In this document: in pieces, positions 2,153 to 38,343 of the stretch
Layout: each line of letters opens with the position of its first letter
Position numbering within the stretch: the first letter of the stretch is position 1
Source of the DNA: an uncultured Candidatus Saccharibacteria bacterium
GTDB taxonomy: Bacteria; Patescibacteriota; Minisyncoccia; Phycocordibacterales; XYD1-FULL-46-19
DNA: 48,834 bases
Assembly: GCA_964539475.1 (NCBI GenBank)
Contig: CAZIIR010000002.1
Coordinates: 7,474-56,307 of the forward strand
Reading direction: 5' to 3'
Made by a program: the position numbers and the translations under genes
The notes under the pieces: generated by a model
What the model was told of the DNA's origin: nothing
The model's database searches: none
What the model saw: only the letters and a program-made list of their open reading frames with translations

Positions 2153-3586
2153 ATGTCAGAACCAATCTGGCCTCAAATTTTAAAAAAGCTCCTTGAAATG
2201 GGGCTTCCGGGAATTGACCAGTTGGTTATCGAGAACTGGCTGGAGATATGTTTGTGCGATGGGATAGCTAATCGAAAGCTAAAACTCGTTGCCCAGACCG
2301 GCATTGTAAGAGATCGAGTGCAGAACGAACTTGCCGAAGGAATTCTGCAAGCGGTTCAAACTTTCGACTGGGGGAAAAACGTCATCAGAGTGGAAGTACA
2401 AGACGACCCTCGCCGTTGTTTTCCTCGAGATGAAGACTGCTTAGCAGAAAGTCCTGCCAACAATGAGCTAACGGCTGTAGCCGTCCAAGTTAAATCAACG
2501 GTTGCTGGACTCCAAACCAGGACTCAAGACAAGACGACAGTTTCCTACCCTGAATTTACCTTCGGTAACTTAATCGAAGGACCAGGCAATCGTTACGCCC
2601 GGGCTTTGGCGTTGGAGATGCCAGAACGGCAAACCAAAGAGAAACTTGTCTTAGTCTATGGGAAACCAGGTTCAGGCAAGACTCACCTCCTCCAGGCCAC
2701 CCACAAGGAGGCCTTGGCGAGAGCTCAGGATAAGTCGCATATTATCTCCGTCAGCGCCCAAGAATTCACGGACGAATTTATGGTCGCATTGGGACAAAAG
2801 AAGATGCTGGAGTTTGGCAGGAAATACGACCGGTGCAAATTCCTCATCTTCGATGAAGTCCAACTTCTGGCTGGTCGAGACAAGACACAAGAGACACTGA
2901 TTGGCATCCTGGACAAAATCCAGGAAAAAGGCGGGCGCGTTCTCATTGCCTCGCTAGTCCACCCCAAAGACGTGAAGTTAGACCCTAGTCTGAAGTCTCG
3001 ACTTTGTGGATTCAACTGCGAAAAGATTGAGCCACCACCAGTGGAGCTAAAAGAAGAAATTCTCAACCTCCACATCAGTAGGTCTCACCTAGCAGAAAAT
3101 CTCTGGCCCAGTGCCGAGATTGTTTCCTGGATCGCCCGAGAAGCCAACGGTGATGCGCGATTTCTACTTGGCCTGCTCAAGAGAGTGCTTAGTCATATTC
3201 GACTCGACCAGAAACCCCTGTCGCTCAAGGAAGTTCAGGAACTATTGTCGGATACTATGCCAAACCCTGTTGACTGTCTCTTGATTAAAAAAGTGGTGGC
3301 TTCGCACTACGGCGCCACTGTTGAGGCTTTGCATGGCCCAGGCAGAAACAAACTCATTGCCCGGCCCCGCCAGGTGGCAATGTACCTCTGTCGCAAGTTT
3401 CTTCCTGGCGAGAGCCTAGCAAAGATTGGCGAGCAATTTGGCAAACGCGACCACACAACGGTCGTGGCTGCAATCAAAGTCATAACCGATATTCTCGCCA
3501 ATGGGTCTGGTCAGGATGAGCTAGTAAGCGAGAAGGACAGCTTGGTGTCCGACTTACAAATAATAGAAAGGAGACTCCGAGACTAA
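2153..3586 (+). CDS. dnaA: DnaA-type replication initiator (divergent)
   Basis: Walker A is GKPGSGKTHLL and Walker B is FLIFDEVQLL. The box VII-like segment is SLKSRL..EKIEPP. C-terminal domain IV reads ARPRQVAMYLCRKFLPGESLAKIGEQFGKRDHTTVVAAIK. The N-terminus resembles DnaA domain I (IWPQILKKL...). AAAGGAG lies 8 nt before the ATG. Confidence 0.8.
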   Translation: MSEPIWPQILKKLLEMGLPGIDQLVIENWLEICLCDGIANRKLKLVAQTGIVRDRVQNELAEGILQAVQTFDWGKNVIRVEVQDDPRRCFPRDEDCLAESPANNELTAVAVQVKSTVAGLQTRTQDKTTVSYPEFTFGNLIEGPGNRYARALALEMPERQTKEKLVLVYGKPGSGKTHLLQATHKEALARAQDKSHIISVSAQEFTDEFMVALGQKKMLEFGRKYDRCKFLIFDEVQLLAGRDKTQETLIGILDKIQEKGGRVLIASLVHPKDVKLDPSLKSRLCGFNCEKIEPPPVELKEEILNLHISRSHLAENLWPSAEIVSWIAREANGDARFLLGLLKRVLSHIRLDQKPLSLKEVQELLSDTMPNPVDCLLIKKVVASHYGATVEALHGPGRNKLIARPRQVAMYLCRKFLPGESLAKIGEQFGKRDHTTVVAAIKVITDILANGSGQDELVSEKDSLVSDLQIIERRLRD

Positions 3587-3638: not shown

Positions 3639-5420
3639 TTACGACCGCTTGTGTTTGGCTCGCTCAGCCTCGGTCAAGTATTGCTTACGCAAGCGCACAC
3701 TTTTCGGCGTGATTTCTAAATATTCATCATCGGACATTATCTCCAGTCCCCGCTCAATCGTAATCGGTAGTGGTGGCACCAAATAAGTTTTTTCATCTGT
3801 ACCCGAAGCGCGCATATTGGTTAGCTGTTTACCCTTGGTTGGGTTCACGGCCATTTCTTCACCTTTTGAGGTGTTACCTACCACCATACCCTCATACACA
3901 TCTTCGGCTGCTCCAATATATAAAATACCTCGTGTCTGTAAGTTGGCGAGCGAAAAACCCAAAGCTTTGCCCGAGGCCATTGAAGTCATCGAACCCACCG
4001 CGCGTTTTTCAATTTCACCAGCGTAAGGGCGGAAGCCCACCACTCGGGTAGCAAAAATACCTTCACCTTTGGTGTCGATAACAAACTGCCCCCGGTAGCC
4101 CAAAAGACCGCGCGTTGGCCCCTCTAGAGTAAGACGGACAATATTGCCATCGACTTTCATATTGGTCATATGCACAGCCCGCTTGCCTAGTTTTTCAATT
4201 ACTGTTCCCTGCACTTCGGCCGGAACTTCAATCGTTACTTCTTCAAACGGCTCCGATTTTACTCCATCTACATCTTTAATAATAACTTGAGGCTGAGAGA
4301 CGGCCATTTCAAAACCTTCGCGTCTCATATTTTCCAAAAGGACCGCAATATGGAGCTCGCCTCGGCCATAAACCTTCATCGTGTCGCCATCAAAATCGAC
4401 CCGCAAACCCACGTTGATTTCCAATTCTTTCAAGAGACGCTCGCGGATCTGGCGACTAGTCACAAACTTTCCTTCGCGCCCACCAAACGGCGAGTCGTTG
4501 ACCAAAAAGTTTAGGGCGATAGTAGGTTCATCGACATGAATAACTGGTAACATTTCCGTATTTGGGTTGTCACAAATACTGTCACCAATATAAATTTCTG
4601 ACAGACCGGCAACCATCACAATATCTCCAGCCACCGCTTCTTTTACCTCTTTACGTCTAATCCCCTCAAAAGTGAAAAGTTTAGTAATCTTTCCTTCTTC
4701 TATCTGACCGTTTGATTTTTTAATATAAACCTTTCCCCCATCTTTTATTACTCCTTCATATACTCGCACTACTGCGAGCCGACCCAAAAAGTTGTCGTAA
4801 GCTAGGTTAAAAGGCTGGGCCCGCAACGGAGCCGAGGTGTCACTAGGCGCCGGCAAAACATGCTCTAAAACAGTATCGAGCAAGGGCTCCAAATTTTTGC
4901 GTTCATCTTCCAAATTTTTCATCGCTACCCCATCTTTACCAATAGCGTACACGGTGACGAAGTCTAATTGTTCGTCGGTTGCCCCCAATTCCATAAACAA
5001 TTCCAAAATCTCGTCGTGAGCCCGGGCCGCGTCGGCTGCAGGTTTATCAATTTTATTCAAAACGACAATTGGTTTATGACCAATCTCGAGTGATTTTTTT
5101 AACACGAAACGAGTCTGGGGCATGGGCCCTTCTTGGGCGTCGACCACTAAAAGCACCGAGTCGATCGAGCGTAACACACGTTCGACTTCCGAACCAAAGT
5201 CGGCGTGACCCGGGGTATCAACAATATTTATCTTGGTGCCTTTGTAGTTGATTGAGGTATTTTTAGCGTAAATAGTAATACCTCGCTCGCGCTCTAGGTC
5301 GTTAGAGTCCATCGATACTCCCTCTTCCACCATACCGGTCTCACGCATAATAGCGTCGGTGAGGGTGGTTTTGCCGTGGTCCACGTGAGCGATAATAGCG
5401 ATGTTTCGTATTTCAGACAT
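3639..5420 (-). CDS. typA: Translational GTPase TypA/BipA
   Basis: 593 aa. Motifs are [13 protein letters not shown] (G1), DTPGHADF (G3) and NKIDK (G4). The EF-G-like domains and the TypA-specific C-terminus are collinear throughout. Confidence 0.95.
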
Positions 5421-7460: not shown

Positions 7461-7489
7461 TCTCTACCACTATTTAAGACTTTTGTCTA
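7461..7489 (-). promoter_or_regulatory. Promoter (TAGACA-17-TAGAGA, extended TGg) carrying the shared box GTATAGACAAAAGT
   Basis: The minus strand reads GTATAGACAAAAGTCTTAAATAGTGGTAGAGAT. The -35 region lies inside the last codons (CIDKSLK*) of the upstream nuclease gene. Confidence 0.55.
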
Positions 7490-8087
7490 TACAAGCCCTA
7501 TCGGCCCACAAACCTCTTTTTTCTACCCGTGCTTCTTGTTGGGCTAGTCTAAAATCTGCTTGATATTTATACGGTACCCCGTTGTAGATGTACTCATAAG
7601 CAAAACCTTCGGTCACCATTAGTTTATTAAAATTAGTCCCGTCGGGAAGTATCACATACCGCAACAGCCGGCCATACTTGTCGCGCTCACCTTGTGTTGG
7701 GTCCGCTTCTAGTCGCACTGTTTGCCCCGCGAGCACCGCCTTCGCTTTAGCCGAAGCTTCTATACCGAAACACTCCACCTTTTTGCGCGGGTCTACGGTC
7801 TCGGGTGTATTTATCCCAATCAAACGCAAAGTTTCTTTCTTCCCCTCTATATCTACCACCACCGTGTCGCCATCCACCACTCTTACCACTTGATACAAAT
7901 CTGTCGACACTATTGGTGAAGAAGTCGCCACCCCAGTCTCTTCGGCTAGTGTCGACCACCCCTCTTCACCACTTACATCTTCCCTACTTTTTTCATTCAC
8001 CACCACCTGGTTTCCAACTAAAATAAGTAAAAACAAAACCGCCCCCACCACACCGCCACCAATTTTTACCAGTTTAAAAGAAGGCAT
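7470..8087 (-). CDS. Membrane-anchored thermonuclease (staphylococcal nuclease/SNase fold)
   Basis: It has an N-terminal TM helix. The SNase motifs are VVRVVDGDTVVV, LRLIGINTPET, GERDKYGRLLRYV and EGFAYEY. Confidence 0.85.
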   Translation of the reverse strand: MPSFKLVKIGGGVVGAVLFLLILVGNQVVVNEKSREDVSGEEGWSTLAEETGVATSSPIVSTDLYQVVRVVDGDTVVVDIEGKKETLRLIGINTPETVDPRKKVECFGIEASAKAKAVLAGQTVRLEADPTQGERDKYGRLLRYVILPDGTNFNKLMVTEGFAYEYIYNGVPYKYQADFRLAQQEARVEKRGLWADRACIDKSLK

Positions 8088-9460: not shown

Positions 9461-10312
9461 GTGACAATAAAACCTAACAAAATTAAAACTCTGGCTCTCT
9501 ACTCTGTTATTTTTATAACTATTGGTTTTATTGCTGTGCCAGTAATAATTAATTTTATAACTAACCCTTCAAATAACCGCGATTGGAATGATGATCAAAA
9601 AATTCTTCCCTACGCCACAATTAAAGATAATTTGATACATATTTATAATATAAGAAACTTTTCATATTCTTCACCCAAAACCTACACTCCAGACTATTAC
9701 GACAACGTATTTGATCTAAATAAAATTAAAAGAGTTTGGTATGTAGTTGAACCATTTTCTGGTGTACCAGGATCTGCTCATACATTCTTGAGTTTTGAAT
9801 TTGAGGATAATAAATTTATTTCTATTTCTGTTGAAATCCGTAAGGAGAAAGACGAGGAATATAGTCCAATAAAAGGACTATTAAATAGGTACGAAGTAAT
9901 GTATGTAATCGCCGATGAACGTGATGTGATAAAACTACGATCAAACTATCGAAATGATCTTGTTTACTTATACCCAGCAAATGCTAATAAAGAAAAAGTA
10001 AAGTTATTATTTTTAGACATGATTAATAGGACTAATAATCTAAATAACCACCCTGAATTCTATAATACAATCACAAACAACTGTACAACCAATATTGTCA
10101 ATCACATAAACAAAATTGGTTCCAAAAAAATCTCCTTGTTTAACCTAAGCGTAATACTGCCCGCGAGTTCCGATAAACTTGCCTACCATCTTGGGCTTAT
10201 AGATACAAACCTGTCTTTTGATGATACTAAGTCACTGTATCTTATAAATGATCGGGCCACAAAACACGCGACTGACCCTGACTTTTCAGTAAAGATCCGG
10301 ACGAAAGAATAA
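9461..10312 (+). CDS. DUF4105 (Lnb N-terminal-like) domain membrane protein
   Basis: It has an N-terminal TM helix. Segments follow the DUF4105 pattern: NRDWNDDQKILPYA, IYNIRNFSY, WYVVEPFSG..GSAHTFLSFEF, ISVEIRKEKDEEYSPIKGL and YEVMYVIADERDVIKLRSNYR. The gene is very AT-rich. Confidence 0.65.
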   Translation: MTIKPNKIKTLALYSVIFITIGFIAVPVIINFITNPSNNRDWNDDQKILPYATIKDNLIHIYNIRNFSYSSPKTYTPDYYDNVFDLNKIKRVWYVVEPFSGVPGSAHTFLSFEFEDNKFISISVEIRKEKDEEYSPIKGLLNRYEVMYVIADERDVIKLRSNYRNDLVYLYPANANKEKVKLLFLDMINRTNNLNNHPEFYNTITNNCTTNIVNHINKIGSKKISLFNLSVILPASSDKLAYHLGLIDTNLSFDDTKSLYLINDRATKHATDPDFSVKIRTKE

Positions 10313-10316
10313 GAGC

Positions 10317-10601
10317 CTAATAATAAACTCTTATAACATATATAATTTGTACTATAGGTAAAATCACAGAAACGCCACCAACAATCATACAGGCTAGTGA
10401 AAATATTTTTGGCTTTATGATATTATTTTTTAAATTATAAAAAGAAATAGCAAAAAGAAGTATCGCGAAAGGTAAAATTAAAACCAAATAACCAAGCAAT
10501 AATTCATACCAATTTGGTACAGTAAATGACCCGTAGACGTTTATTAAGCACCAAACACTAAGCCCCACACTTGTTGTATATAAAAATTTTTTTGTTAACA
10601 T
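10317..10601 (-). CDS. Small 3-TM membrane protein, candidate immunity protein for the RHS toxin
   Basis: 94 aa with three hydrophobic helices. The ATG at 10601 lies 2 nt after the RHS stop (10604-10606) on the same strand. Confidence 0.55.
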   Translation of the reverse strand: MLTKKFLYTTSVGLSVWCLINVYGSFTVPNWYELLLGYLVLILPFAILLFAISFYNLKNNIIKPKIFSLACMIVGGVSVILPIVQIIYVIRVYY

Positions 10602-10603
10602 AT

Positions 10604-13600
10604 TTATTTATTAAGTTTTGAATCAATAATTTGCCAAACTTCAGAATTCTGCCATAAATCAGAGTGCGCATTAATAAAATTAAATCCTGTTCCTTTTGTA
10701 ACACCGATATTATTTGCTCTAACAAAAAACTTATTTGCTAGAGAAAAAACTGTTGGCGGGTAAGCTCCAAATAGTCCGGCGACGCCTATTTTACCTACTG
10801 AAAAAGCTCGCCCACCTAAAACCTGAATCGGGTCCACAAGACTGTAGGCATTAGCGTGTCTACCAATCATATCATAATTTGGTTTGTAATCAGCCCTCAC
10901 TGGAGTGCCTAGGGTAACCAAATTGTCAATCTTTCTTTTTGTCATCTTACTCAAGAGAATAGCAATGTTTCCGCCGTGACTATGGGCAATCACATTAAGT
11001 TTTTCATCATTTTTGAAATTATAATCTTTAATCATTTTATTTAAATTCTGAGCAGCTTCTTTCCGGGCAGGTCTATTATTTTCTCCCGACCAACTGAAAA
11101 TCTTTGGCTCCTCTTTAAATGTTTTACCAACCACCTCTATAAAATCTTTTGCTTGACCATTTTTTGACCAAGATTTTTTATTATGAAAAGTACCTGGAAT
11201 TATCACCGTTAATAAACCACTTGGATCTTTCATCCCAATTGGGTTATTTCTCGCATAACTATAACTATTTTGTTGTTGAGGATCTATTAATAGTTCTGCT
11301 GGTAACACCCAAAACATTGGATCCTGACTCAAAAACCGGCCGATTTTGCCGTTTTGATAGCGGGCATTAAGGTAGCTAAGTCCAGTAAAATCATCATACT
11401 CCTGGCCAATATATTTTTGGCTTTGATTATAAGTCGATATTTTTTGGTCGAGACGAAGCTCACCATAGGGGTAATAGTCGACTAGTTCACTAATGGCGCT
11501 GTTTTTATCAGTCACAAGACTAGTGCCAGAGAGATGATCAGTGTGAATATAATAAGGACTACTAGTAGCACTTTCACTACGAATCGTCGCCACCAAGCGG
11601 TCCCCAGCATAGATATGTTTATCAATAATTTGCCCAGAAATATCATAATTCGGACTGATATACAGTGTTGTACTGGTACCTGTTTTTTGAGAAATTCTTT
11701 GTCCTTCATTATCGTACTCATATGTAGTAACTAAATTACCAGTGATACTTTTTACTAAACGGTCATTATAGTCCCAAGTAAAAGTGGCACCTGGTGCCAT
11801 TAGCATATTTCCATTTTTATCATAAGAATAAGTTGAGGAGGCAATGGAGGTCACGGCTTGGGGCGAAGTATAGTCAACAGCACTGTAACCATAACTACCG
11901 CCCGGACCGCTTAAAATATTACCAGTTGGGCCGTAAGTAAAATTTTGACTATATAAAGTAGAGCTAGCATTTACTGCTGTAGCTTTGGTCAAACGATAAA
12001 GATCGTCATAAGTATAAGTTACTGTCTTCGTGAGCAGGTTAGGCGAAAGATCAATTTCTTTTGTAATATTTCCACCAGCATCATAAAGATAGCTCACTGA
12101 CTGATATGTTGTACTACCTTTCTTGGTTTCTTTGTTCTTTAGTTGATAATTTTTAGCTGAGTCATAGGTAAAAATATTTTCTATACCGTCGGCATTTTGC
12201 TGATAAGTATCCAACCCGTGAGGTCCATAGTCCAAATCAGCCACGACAGGAAGCACTGGCCCATTTAGAATATCTCGCCGTGATATTTTCTCTATTTGAC
12301 CAGACCGATTGTAATTATAAATTATCTCCATATTGTCAGGTAAGCGTTTAGAAACTAAATTTCCAGCCAGATCATAAGCATTGACGGTAGTATAAGAAAA
12401 CTGATTGTAAACTTTATTATCTACCCTAACCTCACCCCGTGGGGTATATTGATAATTTTTAGACAGTCCAAGAATAGCCACCTTGCATAAACGTCCAACT
12501 CCATTGACACAATTGTCATAGATATACTTAACCTCCGGACCGGCTGTAGCAATATAATCTTCCGTTAGTGGTCGGTTCAGTGGGTCATAAACATAATTAA
12601 CAATTTGTCCTAGCGGGTCTTTCCTTGATATCAAATTACCATTATCATCGTAATAATATGCCCAAAGACTAAAAGTCGTATCTGTCGACTGGTGTAAGTC
12701 TTGAGCGGTCAACCGGCGCCCTAAGTTATCATAAGTGAAATCACGAATATTATTGAGTGCATCTATAATCCTGATTAAATTTCCAGTGGGACTATAATAA
12801 TACCGAGTATTATAGAAACCATTGCCGTACTTTTCATCAACCAGAACTAGTCGCCCATAAGCATCTTTGGTATATTTTTTTACTTTTCCTAAAGGGTCAG
12901 TAACAGTGGTCACCCAATCATTATAAGTGTAATTAGTAGAACCAAGTGAATTAACAACTATTTGCGGACGACCAACGGCATCGTAAGTAAAATTAGTAGT
13001 GATACCGGTTGAAAAAATTGGGGTAGTATAATATGAACCCGCTGAAGTATAAGGTAAAGTTTGAGTTGCTAATTCTCCCTGAGGGTTATAGTTAAGGGAA
13101 GTTACCGCGTAGTCGTCAGCGTCCTCCATCGAAGTCCTTTCTTGGATTAGTCTGCCGAGACCGTCAAAGTATTGATAAACTTCCGTAAATAAATTGGCAG
13201 TCAGTGAAGTTTTGACCTTAACTGACTGTGGTATTGTTTCGTCTTGATACGAGATATCTCTAATAGTAACGGTGGCACCTGAGCCGGCTTTTTCCTGTTC
13301 CCTGATCGGTCGTCCCAGCCCATCATAAGTTTTTATTTTACTAAAACCATTGGCATCGATTTCTTCTATCACTTGACCGGACAAATAATCGTAACCAAAG
13401 GACATGGTCTGACCAAGGGTATTGATAGCACTCTTAGGGTAGAGCCCCAAAGAATCATACGCGTAAGAAGTATTTCCACCACGAGGATCAGTCACTTTCT
13501 GTAAAAGACCACGGTTATCATAACTCATAGACTTAGCAATCCACTTAGTGCCTCCGACCCACTCCTCAACTTTGGTTAAATTTCCTTTCAAGACTGCTCC

Positions 13601-16597
13601 ACTGGACAAATCATCATAGTAATATTTTTTATAAGAAACAGCGGCACCATTATTATTCTTGAACTCTTCAGTTTTAGGTAAACTAGATATTCCAATATCG
13701 TTGTTTAGAGCATAAGAATAAACTTGAGTGGTTTTGTCGATTCCGATATCACTAAATCGACCGTCCATATTAGCAGAAACTTCACCCCAGTTTTCCTTGT
13801 TTGTAATATTGCCAAATTTGTCATATTTATAAGTTTCCGCCCCATCACGGTGAGAACTGTCGCCGTCGTAAGTCAGTTTGACATTGGACGCCAAGAAAAT
13901 GAAGTTCCGCTCAAACCCTTGTTCCGTCGCCAAAATAGCACGATCCCACTGGCTAACATTCCGTTCAAATAAACTACCCACCGCGTCATATTGTTCAACT
14001 AGATAAGGACGGTTAATCTTACTAGGGTGATCCTCAAATTCACCGCTACTAGTGTCAGATTCATTACCCTGATAAAAATAGTTTTTAGTCAGATTACCCA
14101 AAGGGTCAATTATGTCCACCTCACCAAAGCCAGCGAACCGCCTATCAAAAGAATTTTTAAAATAATAAAATCCGTCTTTATATAGATATTTAGTGATTGC
14201 TTCCTGACCTAAGCCATCTTTTTCTATAATTTCAGACACAGTCGTAATAACCAAGGGAAGTTTTGGATTTAAAAGTTGCCCTTCGTCTCGATATTGAGTA
14301 CTAGGTTTATATTTTATAGCCACTTCCCCGCCCATAGCAATCTCAACTTTATTTAAAAGATCGGGCTTCGGTCCCTCATTTACATAAGTAGTTGCGTGAT
14401 AGGCTCCCCCATATATTTCATACCGCTGAACTAAATCTTCTAAGCCGTCACCATTTACATCAACGATTCTCACCCCTTGATCAACACCACCCAAATCGAC
14501 AAAAACATGAGGTAAAGACCATTCGACACTTCGCACCCAGGTGTTTCCAGTATTAAGATAAACTTCTTTATTGCTACCTTCCTTTGCTTTTACAATATCA
14601 ACCAAACCGTCACCATTGATATCAAAAAACCTAACCCCAAAATCTTCTCCAGGATCGTTATAACGAATTCCATAGGTCAAGTCGACCGGTAATTGCCAAT
14701 TACCATTTCCCCGCCAGTCAGAACCAGTATTTATCCGATAATCAGATTCAAATTCACCGGCATCAATCTTGACTCTTTTGACCATATCCGCCAAACCATC
14801 ATTATTAACATCCACCAGGCGCTCACCGGTATCTTGGCCGTCTAATATAAAATAATCCTGCGGTTGCATGTCGGTTCGCAGAGTCCAACCTTCTCCATTA
14901 TTACTATGAATGCGACGCAAATCAATTCTACTAGCCCAGGCTCCTAAGATCATATCTACCAAGCCGTCACCGTTCATGTCAGCAAAACGAGCACCAAAGT
15001 CTTTACCAGAATTGTTTCTATCAATATCGGCAGTAACTGCCTCCGGCAGAGTCCAAGTTCCATTACCAGTAAAACTATTCCTCATGTTTAGGAAGGAAAA
15101 TGTTATGATCGACTCATCATCCCATTGATTATTGGCTGTCCTCAAATGAAGATCAGGCAGTAAGTCTCCGTTTATATCTAAAAATTGTAGCCCAGAATCT
15201 CGCCCACCTTTAGTAAAGACTCCTTGCGTGACACTCGGAACTTCAACCCAATCTTGACCCGTATTCTGATATTGTTTTTGACTGTCACCAGACCGACTCC
15301 TTATAACATCAGCCAGACCATCGCCATTAATATCTCCAAAGCGAACTCCTTTGTCTTCACCTACCAAGTGTCCATCTTCACCACTCACTATGTCTTCTGG
15401 TAAGTCCGTCCAGCTACCCCACTGGTGAGCAGATTTTGAATAAAAAAATTTGGTCGCTGGAGCATTAGTCCAACTATTATCGTCAGATAATCCAGACATC
15501 TTGATAGACGACAACACCGACCGAACGCCGTTATCTCCAGACTCATAATTAAGTTCATATTTTCGTTCGAGTCGGTTACTGATTAAAACTTCTATTCTAG
15601 CTAGTCGTTGGTCAGTAAAAATTTCATAACCCGTCGCGTAAGAATAATAAATATCGGGTCGGTTCTCCCAATAAAATTCAACCTTAAAAATACCCGCCGT
15701 GTCCGAGTGGTTAGTATAAGTTATTTGAGAAGGATATATTTGCCCGGAGTGCTTTTCATATTCATAGCTGATAAAATTACCATTAGGGTCCCTAATTTCA
15801 TTAACCAGCCAGCGAGATGTCTTAGACTCGTCACTCGGGTCGCCCTGTCGCGATAAAAAATTTTGACCAAAAACATATTTTGTTCCATCCTTAGCGGTAA
15901 CAATCCATTGGTTTTCTTCGAAAATATATTTTCTAAAATCACCATTTTCAAATCTAGCTCCATGCTCTTGTTCATCAATCCTAGCTAATTCCCCATCAAG
16001 AGACGAACTAAAAATCTTGTCGCTATACATATTTTCAACTCCTCGCCTGTTTAATGTCTCTATATAAGGGATAGAGAGTTCCCAACCATAACCAACCAAA
16101 TTATCATTCTTTTGGTTATCACTACTGTAGCCAAGCTTTAATTCAGGAGTAAGGCCATTACGACCAGGCGGAAGATCTAATAAATAATCATAAGAAAAAG
16201 CTCCTGTAGATGAGTTGACTGTCACTGACTTAGATTTGGTCTTACTATCTCGAGCACTGCTGTTAATATCATCTTCTTCTAAGCTAGTCGCCTTTATTTT
16301 TTCAAGAGATTGTTCATCTTTATCCTTAGTTGCGAGTTCCTCCGCTGGCTCTTCGGGGATATCTTTAGAATCAGGTTCTGTGTCTTGACGAGGTTCTTGT
16401 GCTGGTTCTTCTGTTTCTGGGGCTGGCACTTCGAGCACAGATTCTTCAGCTAAAGCAAGCGGTGCTATCGAATGGGTTGTTAACAAAAAAGCCAGCAATA
16501 AAATTGCTGGCTTTTGGGCAAGTCCCTTCGAACCAAGGCGCTGGCGACGACATGAGGACATATAAATTATGGCTTTGTTGGCATTATAAATAACCAA
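10604..16597 (-). CDS. Secreted TcB/TcC-like RHS repeat protein with C-terminal lipase-type toxin domain (1997 aa)
   Basis: Uninterrupted 5994-nt ORF. The Sec-type signal is AILLLAFLLTTHSIAPLALA/EE. The SpvB-like block reads SVTVNSSTGAFSYDY..LPPGRNGLTPELKLGYSS..GYGWELS. There are six DxNGDGxxD FG-GAP/VCBS-type repeats, many YD repeats (YDxxGR) and an RHS core ending PIGMKDPSGL. The first ATG is at 16561 and is the likelier start, since 16597 is a TTG. Confidence 0.9.
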   Translation of the reverse strand: MVIYNANKAIIYMSSCRRQRLGSKGLAQKPAILLLAFLLTTHSIAPLALAEESVLEVPAPETEEPAQEPRQDTEPDSKDIPEEPAEELATKDKDEQSLEKIKATSLEEDDINSSARDSKTKSKSVTVNSSTGAFSYDYLLDLPPGRNGLTPELKLGYSSDNQKNDNLVGYGWELSIPYIETLNRRGVENMYSDKIFSSSLDGELARIDEQEHGARFENGDFRKYIFEENQWIVTAKDGTKYVFGQNFLSRQGDPSDESKTSRWLVNEIRDPNGNFISYEYEKHSGQIYPSQITYTNHSDTAGIFKVEFYWENRPDIYYSYATGYEIFTDQRLARIEVLISNRLERKYELNYESGDNGVRSVLSSIKMSGLSDDNSWTNAPATKFFYSKSAHQWGSWTDLPEDIVSGEDGHLVGEDKGVRFGDINGDGLADVIRSRSGDSQKQYQNTGQDWVEVPSVTQGVFTKGGRDSGLQFLDINGDLLPDLHLRTANNQWDDESIITFSFLNMRNSFTGNGTWTLPEAVTADIDRNNSGKDFGARFADMNGDGLVDMILGAWASRIDLRRIHSNNGEGWTLRTDMQPQDYFILDGQDTGERLVDVNNDGLADMVKRVKIDAGEFESDYRINTGSDWRGNGNWQLPVDLTYGIRYNDPGEDFGVRFFDINGDGLVDIVKAKEGSNKEVYLNTGNTWVRSVEWSLPHVFVDLGGVDQGVRIVDVNGDGLEDLVQRYEIYGGAYHATTYVNEGPKPDLLNKVEIAMGGEVAIKYKPSTQYRDEGQLLNPKLPLVITTVSEIIEKDGLGQEAITKYLYKDGFYYFKNSFDRRFAGFGEVDIIDPLGNLTKNYFYQGNESDTSSGEFEDHPSKINRPYLVEQYDAVGSLFERNVSQWDRAILATEQGFERNFIFLASNVKLTYDGDSSHRDGAETYKYDKFGNITNKENWGEVSANMDGRFSDIGIDKTTQVYSYALNNDIGISSLPKTEEFKNNNGAAVSYKKYYYDDLSSGAVLKGNLTKVEEWVGGTKWIAKSMSYDNRGLLQKVTDPRGGNTSYAYDSLGLYPKSAINTLGQTMSFGYDYLSGQVIEEIDANGFSKIKTYDGLGRPIREQEKAGSGATVTIRDISYQDETIPQSVKVKTSLTANLFTEVYQYFDGLGRLIQERTSMEDADDYAVTSLNYNPQGELATQTLPYTSAGSYYTTPIFSTGITTNFTYDAVGRPQIVVNSLGSTNYTYNDWVTTVTDPLGKVKKYTKDAYGRLVLVDEKYGNGFYNTRYYYSPTGNLIRIIDALNNIRDFTYDNLGRRLTAQDLHQSTDTTFSLWAYYYDDNGNLISRKDPLGQIVNYVYDPLNRPLTEDYIATAGPEVKYIYDNCVNGVGRLCKVAILGLSKNYQYTPRGEVRVDNKVYNQFSYTTVNAYDLAGNLVSKRLPDNMEIIYNYNRSGQIEKISRRDILNGPVLPVVADLDYGPHGLDTYQQNADGIENIFTYDSAKNYQLKNKETKKGSTTYQSVSYLYDAGGNITKEIDLSPNLLTKTVTYTYDDLYRLTKATAVNASSTLYSQNFTYGPTGNILSGPGGSYGYSAVDYTSPQAVTSIASSTYSYDKNGNMLMAPGATFTWDYNDRLVKSITGNLVTTYEYDNEGQRISQKTGTSTTLYISPNYDISGQIIDKHIYAGDRLVATIRSESATSSPYYIHTDHLSGTSLVTDKNSAISELVDYYPYGELRLDQKISTYNQSQKYIGQEYDDFTGLSYLNARYQNGKIGRFLSQDPMFWVLPAELLIDPQQQNSYSYARNNPIGMKDPSGLLTVIIPGTFHNKKSWSKNGQAKDFIEVVGKTFKEEPKIFSWSGENNRPARKEAAQNLNKMIKDYNFKNDEKLNVIAHSHGGNIAILLSKMTKRKIDNLVTLGTPVRADYKPNYDMIGRHANAYSLVDPIQVLGGRAFSVGKIGVAGLFGAYPPTVFSLANKFFVRANNIGVTKGTGFNFINAHSDLWQNSEVWQIIDSKLNK
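10607..11212 (-). other. C-terminal toxin tail (202 aa) downstream of the DPSGL autoproteolysis motif; alpha/beta-hydrolase lipase-like
   Basis: DPSGL is encoded at 11213-11227. The tail contains the nucleophile elbow NVIAHSHGGNIA (AxSxG, as in Bacillus-type lipases). Candidate acid and His residues are at SLVDPI and INAHSD. Confidence 0.6.
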
Positions 16598-19303: not shown

Positions 19304-20140
19304 TTACTCGGTGGCCACGGGGACAGTGCCACAAGCCTGCCTAGTCTCATCTAAAATAGCAAAGACTTCATCGATGACCGGCTCTACCGCTCGCACATCA
19401 CGACCGTCTTTCAGATTTAAATAAACATCCAAAGCATGGGTTTGCATCGCCGACTCCACTTCACATTGGCGAAAACGATATTGGGCTTCGGCCCAAGAAA
19501 TAAAGACACTGCCGGTACCAGAAACCAGCGGTACAGCTTGCCCCTCCTCCAAAACGGTCAGTTTGCGCACAAGTACACCCTCGTCTTGGGCGATCCCCTC
19601 CACCGCTACCTGTCGGCCCCCAAAGGCCGTGTCGAAAGGTGAAGACATAGCCACACAAGGCAAAGCGCCGTTTGAGGCGGCACAGACACTGAGCTCGTCG
19701 AGGTAAAGCGTCTGTTGTTTGCCTTCGACTATAATAATAGGATAACTAGACGAAGCCGAAATAGTACCAGTAACAACTGTATTTATTGGTTCAGTGGGTT
19801 CGTTGACCTGCACACAATCGACAAAAATCGGACTACCAGCCTCTTCTAAAAAGGCCGTGCGTCCTTTGTTCCAAAAAACTACCGCCTCGCCTTCGTTGGC
19901 AAAGCGAGCGCCAGAAGCAGAAATTACTTGTTCGAGAGTAAAGCTACGCCCGTCGGAAAGCTTGAGCGCTACGATACCGTCGCTAAAACCAGCTTCAATC
20001 GCCTTGCCACCAGTACAAGCAAAAGCGACCACTGTGTCTGGCGTAGCTACCTGTTGGTCTAATTTAGATGAACCAAAATAGTAAATGGCTCCGAGTAATA
20101 AAATGACTACCACAATAGCGCCAATAGCTTTGGTTTGCAT
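19304..20140 (-). CDS. Membrane-anchored protein with MliC-like (lysozyme inhibitor) domain
   Basis: The TM anchor is AIGAIVVVILLLGAIYYF. The segment FACTGGKAIEAGF..VALKLSDGRSFTLEQVISASGARFAN..AVVFWNKGRTAFLEE follows the MliC pattern. The start is set at ATG 20140, because the longer ORF would overlap the upstream gene. Confidence 0.6.
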   Translation of the reverse strand: MQTKAIGAIVVVILLLGAIYYFGSSKLDQQVATPDTVVAFACTGGKAIEAGFSDGIVALKLSDGRSFTLEQVISASGARFANEGEAVVFWNKGRTAFLEEAGSPIFVDCVQVNEPTEPINTVVTGTISASSSYPIIIVEGKQQTLYLDELSVCAASNGALPCVAMSSPFDTAFGGRQVAVEGIAQDEGVLVRKLTVLEEGQAVPLVSGTGSVFISWAEAQYRFRQCEVESAMQTHALDVYLNLKDGRDVRAVEPVIDEVFAILDETRQACGTVPVATE

Positions 20141-20144
20141 ATTT

Positions 20145-20474
20145 TTATAACAATTTAAAACCAATAATTTTTACTTCCGTATCCGGACCAACTCTGTCAC
20201 CATAATAACGGCGGTAGGTGTCATACATCTCTTCATTGCTAGCAAATTTTTCGTGACCGGTAAAATCGGTCGGCTGGAGCTCTCCTAAAATTTTTATTTT
20301 AACCGACAACAATTCAACCTCCGCAAATTTTTCACCCGTATTCGAATTTACCATCTCTACCTTGTCGCCTACTGTTAGATTTTTGTCATCAAACAAACGC
20401 CAAGTGGTATCTTTTTCACCAGACAAAACGAGTGGTACCAAATGTTCACGAAATTTTAGAGTTTTGGCAACCAT
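20145..20474 (-). CDS. ASCH domain protein
   Basis: 109 aa. The segment LKFREHLVPLVLSGEKDTTWRLFDDKNLTVGDKVEMV matches the ASCH N-terminal pattern. Confidence 0.65.
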   Translation of the reverse strand: MVAKTLKFREHLVPLVLSGEKDTTWRLFDDKNLTVGDKVEMVNSNTGEKFAEVELLSVKIKILGELQPTDFTGHEKFASNEEMYDTYRRYYGDRVGPDTEVKIIGFKLL

Positions 20475-36504: not shown

Positions 36505-38343
36505 GTGATAGTCCCTTACCCATATCAAGCCGAATGTCTTAAGGCCGTAGAAGAAACCCTTTCCCAAGGGCGTAAAAAAGCTCTGATTGTAATGGCAAGC
36601 GGTCTGGGTAAAACCATCACGGCTGCCTTAACTTTCAAAGCTTTCTGTTGTAAACAACCTGGGAGTCGCCTTCTTTTCTTATGTCACCAAAATGACATCT
36701 TGGAACAGGCATCGATCGAATTCCGACGAGTCCTGGGCGACACCTACACTTACGGACTCTTTACTGGTCGTGACAAAATTCTCTACCATGAAGCGGATTG
36801 TCTGTTTGCATCGTTCCAAACAATGCAACGGAAAAAACAACAGTTCGACAAGGACGATTTTGATGTGATCATTGTTGACGAGAGTCACCATACTCACGCC
36901 AAGACGTATCTACCGACCGTTCGATACTTCCGTCCGACCTTTTTGTTGGGAATAACGGCTACACCGGAGCGGTCAGACCTGCTGGACATTCGCCATGTTT
37001 ATGGACGAGAGATATTCAATCTCGACCTCCATCAAGCGATCGCCAGAAGACTCCTGACACCAGTGCATTACGTCCTCTTGATGGATGAGATCAGACGGTC
37101 AAAAACGATCAAGACGCCAGAAGGCATGATGTCCATTGCCAAGCTCAACAAGATGCTTTTTGTGCCAAAACGAGACAAGGAGATTGTCAGGATTATCAAG
37201 CAATACCAAGATAGGCTTGATGACCCCCGGACAATTATCTTTTGTCAGTCGATTGAGCACAGTCGGCGACTGGAAAAGTTACTGGGAGGAGCACTACTGA
37301 TTCACAATGCGGTCAAACCAGCAGACCGCAAACAACGGTTACTTCAGTTCCGTCAGTCTGGTGGCACAATTGTTACCATCGACATGTTCAACGAAGGGAT
37401 TGACGTTCCTTCAACCAACTTGATTGTGTTTCTTCGTTCAACATCTTCACCCAGAATCTTCTACCAACAACTTGGCCGCGGACTGCGTAAGTCACCGGGA
37501 AAGAAAGAGGTGACCATATTAGATTTAGTGGGAAATGTCGAACGTATCGAGACCATCCACAAGCTCAAACAGATGGTGGAAGCCGAGCAAGAGTTACTGA
37601 AAAGAGAATCGACCAGCAAACACAAAAGGTCCAGATACGACCAAGAGCCTCTGGAAGTTGAAACTGGGGAGATTAGTTTCGACGAGGTGATTGTTCCTAT
37701 TTTACACTGCCTTAAGTTCTTACGCCGGACTTACAACTCTGTCGATCTGGTTGAAGAACTACGGCAAATGGCGAACAAGCTTGGACGGAATATTACCGTT
37801 GCGGACATTCAGGAGGCACATAAAAAAGATAGGAGCGCTGGCTTACATCTTTTTTACAAAAACTTCGGTAGTATCGCCAATGCACGAGAAGCGGCCGGAT
37901 TAGATCCTGGCAGAAGGAGCTACACCGAGAGTGAAGATCTGACCGAGATGTTGAAAAAACTCGGGAAAGATTTGGGGCGTACCCCTAACGCCAACGACAT
38001 TAAGCGGGCTTCAAAAGCCGGCCTATGTCCTAGTGTAGGGACCTACATCAAGTTCTTTGGCTCGGTTGGTGCAGCACAATCTGCCGCCGGGTTTAAACCA
38101 AACCCTCATGGTTTCGACCCAGACAGAGCTTACCAAGGGTGGTTTACAGACGAAAACCTTATTGAGTATTACCAACAGCTCGAGAGAGAACTGGGAAGGA
38201 GACCCCGTCAGAGAGATATTCAATCTCGCTATAGACGAGGCGAGACCCCGGCTTACAGATCATACTTCCAACATTTTTCTAACTTCGCCAACATGCATCG
38301 CATAATTGCGGAGCGAGAAAAAGAAACCGAGAGGAAGGATTAA
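36505..38343 (+). CDS. Superfamily-2 helicase (ResIII/DEAH type) with three C-terminal tandem repeats
   Basis: Motif I is MASGLGKT, motif II is IIVDESHH, motif III is GITATPER and motif VI is QQLGRGLR. The start is GTG with GGAGG 7 nt upstream. Confidence 0.9.
   Translation: MIVPYPYQAECLKAVEETLSQGRKKALIVMASGLGKTITAALTFKAFCCKQPGSRLLFLCHQNDILEQASIEFRRVLGDTYTYGLFTGRDKILYHEADCLFASFQTMQRKKQQFDKDDFDVIIVDESHHTHAKTYLPTVRYFRPTFLLGITATPERSDLLDIRHVYGREIFNLDLHQAIARRLLTPVHYVLLMDEIRRSKTIKTPEGMMSIAKLNKMLFVPKRDKEIVRIIKQYQDRLDDPRTIIFCQSIEHSRRLEKLLGGALLIHNAVKPADRKQRLLQFRQSGGTIVTIDMFNEGIDVPSTNLIVFLRSTSSPRIFYQQLGRGLRKSPGKKEVTILDLVGNVERIETIHKLKQMVEAEQELLKRESTSKHKRSRYDQEPLEVETGEISFDEVIVPILHCLKFLRRTYNSVDLVEELRQMANKLGRNITVADIQEAHKKDRSAGLHLFYKNFGSIANAREAAGLDPGRRSYTESEDLTEMLKKLGKDLGRTPNANDIKRASKAGLCPSVGTYIKFFGSVGAAQSAAGFKPNPHGFDPDRAYQGWFTDENLIEYYQQLERELGRRPRQRDIQSRYRRGETPAYRSYFQHFSNFANMHRIIAEREKETERKD
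37732..38304 (+). repeat. Three tandem repeats of about 55-65 aa resembling the homing-endonuclease-associated repeat
   Basis: The three units are LVEELRQMANKLGRNITVADIQ...FYKNFGSIANAREAAGL, LTEMLKKLGKDLGRTPNANDIK...YIKFFGSVGAAQSAAGF and LIEYYQQLERELGRRPRQRDIQ...YFQHFSNFANMHRI. Confidence 0.6.

Follow-up and report, generated by a model that had tools for sequence, protein, structure and literature searches.

Rhs toxins can be exported through the Sec pathway, as is WapA of Bacillus subtilis. Polymorphic toxins of the 'TcdB/TcaC' class, as set out in Table 1 of Zhang et al. 2012 (PMC3482391), consist of a signal peptide, an SpvB domain, an integrin-like beta-propeller and rearrangement hotspot (RHS) repeats with many different toxin tips, and alpha/beta-hydrolase lipase-like tips are described in the same paper as Tox-ABhydrolase-1, -2 and -3. 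RHS shells also form the BC cocoons of Tc toxins, for which natural tcB-tcC fusions have been reported (PMC7861908). Here we analyze a stretch of 48,834 nt of contig CAZIIR010000002.1 (the window), in which a single gene of nearly 6 kb encodes a protein with a layout identical to the one that defines the 'TcdB/TcaC' class. Judged by Table 1 of PMC3482391, the protein carries every defining feature of this class, so its architecture has been known since 2012, while the phyletic list given there for the class does not include the candidate phyla radiation (CPR, Patescibacteria), to which the organism studied here belongs. We consider it likely that the gene and the 94-aa open reading frame (ORF) directly downstream form a two-gene polymorphic toxin/immunity module of a CPR bacterium, acting by the steps proposed below, in which an RHS shell most likely packages a small lipase-like toxin. 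What is new here is the pairing of tip and candidate immunity gene. The features of the two genes are listed below, with amino acids numbered from the first codon of the longest ORF.

10604..16597, minus strand: maximal toxin ORF, 1997 codons from a TTG, without internal stop codon
16583..16610, minus strand: promoter-like site TTTACT-16-TATAAT (10/12, a match to consensus only), upstream of the ATG at 16561 and within the TTG extension
16448..16561, minus strand: predicted Sec/signal peptidase I-type signal peptide, aa 13-50, with a basic n-region, the h-region PAILLLAFLLTT and an ALA↓E cleavage motif
16223..16447, minus strand: acidic, Pro/Glu-rich low-complexity linker, aa 51-125, seen in the sequence and similar to linkers of homologs
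15398..16222, minus strand: SpvB/TcB N-terminal domain, about aa 126-400, from the Pfam SpvB profile and a structural match to the TcB N-terminus
14378..15397, minus strand: FG-GAP/integrin-like beta-propeller, about aa 401-740, with six DxNxDxL motifs, located where the TcB gate is
11477..14377, minus strand: TcdB middle/N region and RHS/YD-repeat shell, aa 741-1707, from profiles and sequence matches in the PDB
11213..11476, minus strand: Rhs-associated core (TIGR03696), aa 1708-1795, closing with DPSGL
10607..11212, minus strand: C-terminal toxin tip, aa 1796-1997 (202 aa), predicted minimal LipA-like alpha/beta hydrolase
10317..10601, minus strand: candidate cognate immunity gene, 94 aa, beginning 2 nt past the toxin stop codon, GC 0.27

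The first-pass annotation had described one uninterrupted ORF of 1997 codons, and this agrees with our ORF call and with the public gene call. The latter (P0001) is 1985 aa long, 100% identical, and corresponds to a start at the ATG at 16561 (Met13). Since the promoter-like site lies within the TTG extension, the Met13 start is favored, and the true product is probably the one of 1985 aa. The modules named in the first-pass annotation were checked by profile, structure prediction or alignment, with profile matches of the toxin modules counted only above the curated cut-off of each family. What it had observed was confirmed and its interpretation was supported: the protein matches SpvB and Rhs-core profiles, the tail is modeled as a hydrolase and has a conserved Ser-Asp-His triad in its sequence, and the reading frame is intact. 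Neither a six-frame scan for DPxG nor a phmmer search revealed a second RHS gene or any orphan RHS tip in the window.

The leader was read from sequence and hydropathy. The only hydrophobic segment of the toxin comprises aa 30-51, and the predicted cleavage motif is A48-L49-A50↓E51. The same layout, ..FA↓QE or ..FA↓EE followed by an acidic linker, is common to 23 of 24 full-length homologs, and the 24th is N-terminally truncated. The Sec leader and acidic linker recognized earlier are in this way borne out by sequence, hydropathy and homologs.

The N-terminal half of the toxin is, as modeled, a TcB-like fold. The SpvB profile matches with 5.2e-17 and FG-GAP_3 with 1.5e-15, in agreement with the SpvB-like block and the six propeller-type repeats seen in the earlier annotation. 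The six DxNxDxL motifs are at aa 422, 474, 540, 596, 659 and 713, and the number of propeller blades is taken from these motifs by inference from sequence, not from the model. A model of aa 126-900 based on an alignment of 24 homologs (pLDDT 88.2, pTM 0.88) was compared with the PDB using Foldseek, and the top 13 matches are all TcdB1, TcdB2 or YenB (E 1e-36 to 1e-28, TMq 0.68-0.76). The isolated SpvB N-domain 6p0x matches with TMt 0.62, type VI secretion system (T6SS) Rhs proteins with TMq of at most 0.22, and teneurins and a bacterial teneurin-like protein (9ifo) with TMq of about 0.10.

These values separate the toxin from two known groups. T6SS Rhs effectors (RhsA 7q97, Tse5 8cp6, Tse15 8uy4) have the RHS shell and core in common with it, are its best PDB sequence matches and are likewise toxin/immunity pairs, whereas the window toxin carries a Sec leader, and its head is of the TcB type. 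It matched no PAAR or VgrG family at E<=0.01 and no T6SS genes lie in the window, so we do not regard it as a T6SS Rhs effector. The bacterial teneurin-like protein BiTLP (9pt5/9ifo; PMC13018210) is a Sec/signal peptidase I-exported RHS/YD shell around a cleaved, polymorphic C-terminal toxin, as predicted for the window toxin, and both have an immunity-type gene directly downstream and no known delivery machinery. However, teneurin-like proteins are defined by an FN-plug with an NHL propeller and by a TIP domain, while the head of the window toxin consists of SpvB and an FG-GAP propeller. With an FG-GAP instead of an NHL propeller, and with only the shell/core region aligning, assignment to the teneurin-like proteins was rejected.

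The closest structural relatives are the Tc BC cocoons TcdB2-TccC3 (4o9x, 6h6e) and YenB-YenC (4igl). They share the SpvB head and propeller fold (TMq 0.70-0.76), and the RHS shell, the DPxGL autoproteolysis motif and a basic, presumably encapsulated cargo are found in the window toxin as well. The first-pass annotation had read the gene as a fusion of B-like and C-like halves. The TcB-like head stands, but the protein is not the full sum of B and C: it is one polypeptide with a cocoon of about 1670 residues (aa 126-1795), compared with 2082-2168 in TcdB2-TccC3 chains, so that a TcB head joined to a shortened RHS shell is the more fitting description. Its host also differs, being a CPR bacterium and not a pathogen of insects or humans.

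Such similarity raises the possibility of a true Tc BC component, which would dock on a TcA pentamer encoded elsewhere and inject the lipase into a eukaryotic or bacterial cell. The TcB-like half includes the propeller that binds TcA, natural tcB-tcC fusions provide a precedent (PMC7861908), and the basic tail (pI 9.9) would suit typical Tc cargo. Yet besides the toxin there is no ORF longer than 612 aa in the window, hence no TcA, and no TcA-sized gene lies in the stretches covered around five related CPR loci. The Sec leader conserved in the homologs also speaks against this role; to our knowledge, Tc subunits do not carry Sec leaders. The Tc toxin of Yersinia entomophaga is freed by lysis that depends on a type 10 secretion system (PMC10847048). 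Tc loci are not marked by an immunity-type gene downstream, and a genome of about 1 Mb would presumably be strained by a tcA of 7.5 kb. We did not classify the protein as a Tc toxin proper for lack of TcA in the window and the five related loci and for its Sec leader, and we regard docking on a distant TcA as very unlikely.

The shell region matches RHS_repeat (5e-44), YD_repeat_2x (4.2e-24) and, at aa 708-839, TcdB_toxin_midN (2.3e-26), and among PDB sequences it matches Tse5, RhsA and the shell of a teneurin-like protein. The long run of YD repeats is thereby verified, as is the RHS core ending in DPSGL: Rhs_assc_core TIGR03696 covers aa 1708-1795 with 1.7e-16, and DPSGL occupies aa 1791-1795 (11227..11213). 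R1746, D1759 and D1791 are the putative aspartyl autoprotease residues, and in an alignment of 25 sequences their columns are at least 90% conserved. The spacing from Arg to the first Asp is 13, the same as between R2103 and D2116 of BiTLP, which uses the same R/D/D autoprotease logic (PMC13018210). Across the 25 sequences the family is conserved up to DPxG and the consensus is lost entirely thereafter; where a motif scan placed the junction, homolog tails of about 150-230 aa have mutually unrelated sequences. By analogy, autoproteolysis after DPSGL may be expected, with the tail retained within the shell. A shell, an Rhs core with its Arg and two Asp, a variable tip and, by synteny, a tip-specific downstream gene are among the features by which RHS/YD polymorphic toxins are recognized, and these were found.

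The tail (22.5 kDa) is predicted to be a minimal, lid-less LipA-like alpha/beta hydrolase with a conserved Ser-Asp-His order, which accords with the earlier view that its AHSHGGN motif is a nucleophile elbow of this superfamily. An AlphaFold2 model (pLDDT 86, pTM 0.84) is closest to Bacillus LipA (7r1k and 1i6w) and Lip_vut1 (6nkc), with E of about 1e-6 and TMt 0.64-0.71. Fifty-five PDB structures matched the model at E<=1e-3, and nearly all of the best 50 of them are alpha/beta hydrolases with LipA first, so that the structure search proposed in the first-pass annotation places esterase/lipase-type folds on top. An alignment of 12 tail sequences shows no variation at S78, which lies in AHSHGGN, or at D127, and conservation of at least 90% at H183; in the full protein these are Ser1873, Asp1922 and His1978. 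Searched alone, the tail passes the PGAP1 cut-off (25.8 vs 24.3 bits), and PGAP1 is matched by 11 of the 12 aligned sequences; alpha/beta-hydrolase Pfam matches fall below cut-off when the full-length protein is searched. The best E-value of a PDB sequence search with the tail alone is 0.11. The profile searches proposed at the same time had given matches above curated cut-offs, well past anything expected by chance, for SpvB, TcdB-mid, FG-GAP, RHS_repeat and the Rhs core.

Bacillus LipA-type lipases of family I.4 (1i6w, 7r1k) are lid-less alpha/beta hydrolases of about 180-200 aa, like the tail, and share with it the Ala-His-Ser-x-Gly elbow and the order of the triad. They differ in sequence, with only 15-19% identity, and the tail has a poorly modeled insert of about 20 residues (136-157). 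Delivery as an RHS tip sets the tail apart from LipA-type lipases and from T6SS Tle effectors alike. Tle3 (PF24322) is matched by 2 of the 12 tail sequences (7.9e-8), in contrast to the tail of the window itself, which gives no Tle3 match at E<=0.01. The partner of the tail is predicted to be an integral membrane protein, in contrast to Tli immunity proteins, which are periplasmic. The likeness to the tips of PMC3482391 is drawn at the level of alpha/beta-hydrolase tips in general. The substrate class, lipid esters, is inferred from the nearest folds only.

A word-indexed search returned 11 relatives of the tail, and an exhaustive HMMER search returned 1666 at E<=1e-3, with 414 of them at E<=1e-10; a large number of these relatives form the C-termini of proteins of 1500-3200 aa. 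Among 30 loci inspected, from several phyla, the tail begins directly after the RHS DPxG motif in many. Relatives of the tip are encoded in at least 476 of 599 matched stretches from species-representative genomes, and their carriers range from CPR bacteria to Paenibacillus, Acidobacteriota and fungal endosymbionts. The LipA-like tip is in this respect a widespread cassette, usually followed by a multi-helix membrane ORF, and defines a toxin/immunity pairing that can be tested. The same domain is not confined to RHS proteins but also exists by itself, in proteins of about 290-340 aa (L059, L063, L046, L052). Those of Dependentiae/TM6 have signal-peptide-like N-termini, and others occur in the fungal endosymbionts Mycoavidus and Mycetohabitans.

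The 94-aa ORF has two broad hydrophobic blocks in its hydropathy profile, the first wide enough for two helices, and its product may span the membrane with about three helices. GC in the region is lowest here (0.27) and rises through the tail (0.35) and the RHS body (0.38-0.43) to 0.47-0.48 in the flanking genes. Five further, distinct CPR loci (L001/L006, L004, L007, L008 and L011) have a homolog directly 3' of the tail relatives nearest to that of the window, and the following details were recorded.

L001 (Nomurabacteria contig): uncalled 91-aa ORF, 2 nt past an orphan tip
L004: 76-aa ORF, interrupted by the contig end, after an orphan tip
L007 (Saccharibacteria) and L008 (Komeilibacteria): small ORF homologs after a tip relative
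L011 (Candidatus Uhrbacteria), 3661..3957 and 4201..4485: two tandem small three-helix ORFs after a lipase tip

When 3750 ORFs from 89 loci were scored with a hidden Markov model (HMM) built without the window member, the 94-aa ORF reached E=7.7e-12, and in RHS loci with other tips (L002, L005, L086-L088) nothing scores below 0.01. Since the ORF family is present after this tip and absent from loci with other tips, the 94-aa ORF tracks the tip and not the scaffold. This is the classical signature of a cognate immunity gene, and an immunity function of the membrane protein is probable on this comparative evidence. By the positive-inside rule, a conserved N-W-x-E loop would face outward. In other phyla the product encoded after the tip is usually an unrelated protein of 94-217 aa for which 2-6 helices are predicted, and such membrane partners fit a toxin acting at the membrane. 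No small three-helix membrane partner was found in the passages of PMC3482391, whose immunity-family list was not searched. L001 and L006 share the lengths and HMM scores of several ORFs, including the 91-aa one, and are labeled Nomurabacteria (GCA_016186455.1) and Saccharibacteria (CAZKPK01), respectively; if they are one locus, it carries conflicting taxonomic labels.

The small size and about three membrane helices of the 94-aa ORF could also point to a release factor resembling holins, or to a small membrane protein of unrelated function. Class I holins are alike in size and topology. Lysis-based release is moreover known for Tc toxins (PMC10847048). Against this, the ORF family occurs only after this tip family, including orphan tips without any scaffold (L001, L004), is absent from RHS loci with other tips, and is present as two tandem copies in L011. 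For export the toxin carries a Sec leader itself, and the window contains no holin/endolysin cassette and, near the toxin, no endolysin. We reject the holin reading because the ORF tracks the tip instead of the scaffold, and regard it as highly improbable.

Taking the toxin/immunity module as the preferred reading, we propose the following mode of action. The pre-protein would be exported by Sec and its leader cut after Ala50. Outside the cell it may fold so that the predicted TcB-like head closes the RHS/YD shell. The Rhs-core protease (R1746, D1759, D1791) would then cut after DPSGL, as precedents from TcC, Rhs and teneurin-like proteins suggest, leaving the basic 22.5-kDa tail sealed inside. 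At a neighboring cell the propeller end would open, with a surface receptor probably serving as the trigger rather than TcA. The freed tail could attack acyl esters of the target membrane from outside, and the putatively co-transcribed 94-aa membrane protein would shield the producer and its kin, as its tip-specific synteny suggests.

How such a cocoon delivers a lipase had been seen as a puzzle in the first-pass annotation. The Sec leader and the absence of a translocator were correctly noted: scans of the window found no TcA-like gene and no T6SS, type VII secretion system (T7SS) or two-partner secretion (CdiB-type) gene. The puzzle is, however, smaller than implied, as the protein belongs to a catalogued class and nearly all full-length homologs have the leader. 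A lipase acting on the outer face of the membrane needs no TcA-like injector and no entry into the cytosol, which removes most of the delivery problem for this protein. The same is true of the cell-wall hydrolase domains that we read from Pfam accessions of some relatives.

Several points weigh against this reading. The absence of TcA is established for the 48.8-kb window, so a distant TcA is possible. The best Pfam matches of the tail are generic (PGAP1, Abhydrolase_1) and barely above or below cut-off, and residues 136-157 of the tail are modeled with low confidence. The candidate immunity role of the 94-aa ORF is argued from synteny alone. Finally, the opening trigger of teneurin-like proteins is stated to be not known (PMC13018210), and the same is true of every RHS shell exported by Sec.

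More than 500 proteins match the full-length toxin at E<=1e-10, and the best 120 of these score 990-1345 bits with 32-40% identity. Named relatives are mostly from Paceibacteria, Wolfebacteria, Ryanbacteria, Falkowbacteria and Adlerbacteria; among the best matches listed, every named one belongs to CPR lineages apart from three (a Methanoperedens, a Bacteroidales and an unclassified 'bacterium' entry). The tips are variable and the relatives carry varied extra Pfam domains, of which one source names a LamG-like domain (P0013) and an immunoglobulin-like domain protein (P0046). Other Pfam accessions of relatives we take to be HNH nuclease, restriction-endonuclease-type, CHAP and VanY domains, with positions within the proteins not established. 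In the stretches covered around L002, L005, L086, L087 and L088, up to 10 kb on each side where contig or locus allowed, there is no TcA, T6SS or T7SS gene. These five loci have no large neighbor gene and have a small ORF immediately after the RHS gene. Strings of small ORFs or orphan RHS tips are frequent among them; L088 has a downstream Barstar gene, and a Hint_2 gene is found in L086. L002 (3507..9744) is a CPR contig from groundwater, in which orphan RHS C-terminal tips are arrayed behind a complete RHS gene. They include a phospholipase-like one and the lipase tip P0126, which is followed by a different protein of 248 aa. We found no description of this toxin family in CPR in the literature, a weak negative from an incomplete search.

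CPR bacteria depend on hosts for lipids. With a CPR-type genome, a lipase-like tip, a family very abundant in CPR lineages, and extra N-terminal domains in relatives (P0013, P0046) that may be adhesin-like, one possibility is that the lipase serves to harvest nutrients from a host and not to kill competitors: it would free fatty acids or lysolipids from the host membrane for a CPR cell unable to make lipids itself, and the small membrane protein would shield the membrane of the producer. The presumed nuclease-type, CHAP and VanY domains of relatives and the Barstar gene of L088 instead form the pattern of swappable killing toxins, and orphan tip/immunity arrays such as that of L002 are typical of kin discrimination. 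We therefore consider nutrient harvesting as the primary role doubtful. The LamG-like and immunoglobulin-like domains of relatives, together with the propeller, would also suit a role in surface adhesion or recognition, in which the tail would have lost its toxin function as in animal teneurins, and RHS shells are known to have been co-opted for adhesion (PMC13018210). The intact and conserved autoprotease residues and Ser-Asp-His triad, together with an immunity-type gene linked to the tip, make a purely adhesive role scarcely credible.

As a toxin/immunity pair the module is ordinary in kind, a textbook case, and what deserves attention is how abundant the family is among CPR bacteria; with a genome of roughly 1 Mb, spending 6 kb on one gene is costly. 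The toxin is also one more case of how a Sec-exported RHS shell frees its cargo without an injector, a general question for the class. A bolder proposal, which we think rather unlikely, is that cocoons of the Sec-exported SpvB-propeller-RHS type serve CPR bacteria as their main weapon on contact or as a tool to breach hosts, free of TcA and with a gate opened by a receptor, and that lipase tips open or harvest the membrane of the partner. If true, the cocoon family would be a minimal, self-contained, ancestor-like form of Tc toxins and a key to the episymbiotic lifestyle.

The window lies on a contig of 56.3 kb. Its BipA shares 91% identity with Patescibacteria and Candidatus Vogelbacteria proteins, which supports a CPR origin and, at the level of sequence, a Vogelbacteria-like genome as the host. 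Housekeeping or small-genome genes include dnaA, BipA, a secreted nuclease, TfoX_N, ABC-F, RNase III, sigma-70, ParB, deformylase and DapB; Rfam and tRNA scans found no RNA features in the window. Those of note are as follows.

2153..3586, plus strand: dnaA, about 7 kb from the toxin locus
7470..8087, minus strand: SNase-family nuclease with an N-terminal hydrophobic segment
8659..8961, minus strand: TfoX_N protein
9461..10312, plus strand: Lnb_N membrane protein (PF13387, 1.2e-38), GC 0.32, convergent with the 94-aa ORF with 4 nt between stop codons
16799..18250, minus strand: ABC-F ATPase gene, directly upstream of the RHS gene, in the same order in L088 (8063..9526)
19304..20164, minus strand: MliC-domain (lysozyme inhibitor) protein
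36505..38343, plus strand: ResIII helicase with homing-endonuclease-associated HNH repeats

In the window and in L088 alike, the RHS gene has ABC-F as its immediate upstream neighbor, and the position of the toxin gene is therefore old. The ABC-F proteins of the two loci are 56% identical and the RHS proteins only 38%; the toxin gene therefore holds a conserved chromosomal position while diverging faster than its neighbor. A recent transfer of the whole gene, which the GC dip might suggest, is not proven, as the position is old and only the tip/immunity end looks swapped. The Lnb_N gene has its low GC in common with the tip end of the toxin gene. A functional link between the two is unsupported, as no such gene adjoins tail relatives elsewhere. 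The cumulative GC skew falls steadily over the whole window with no turning point.

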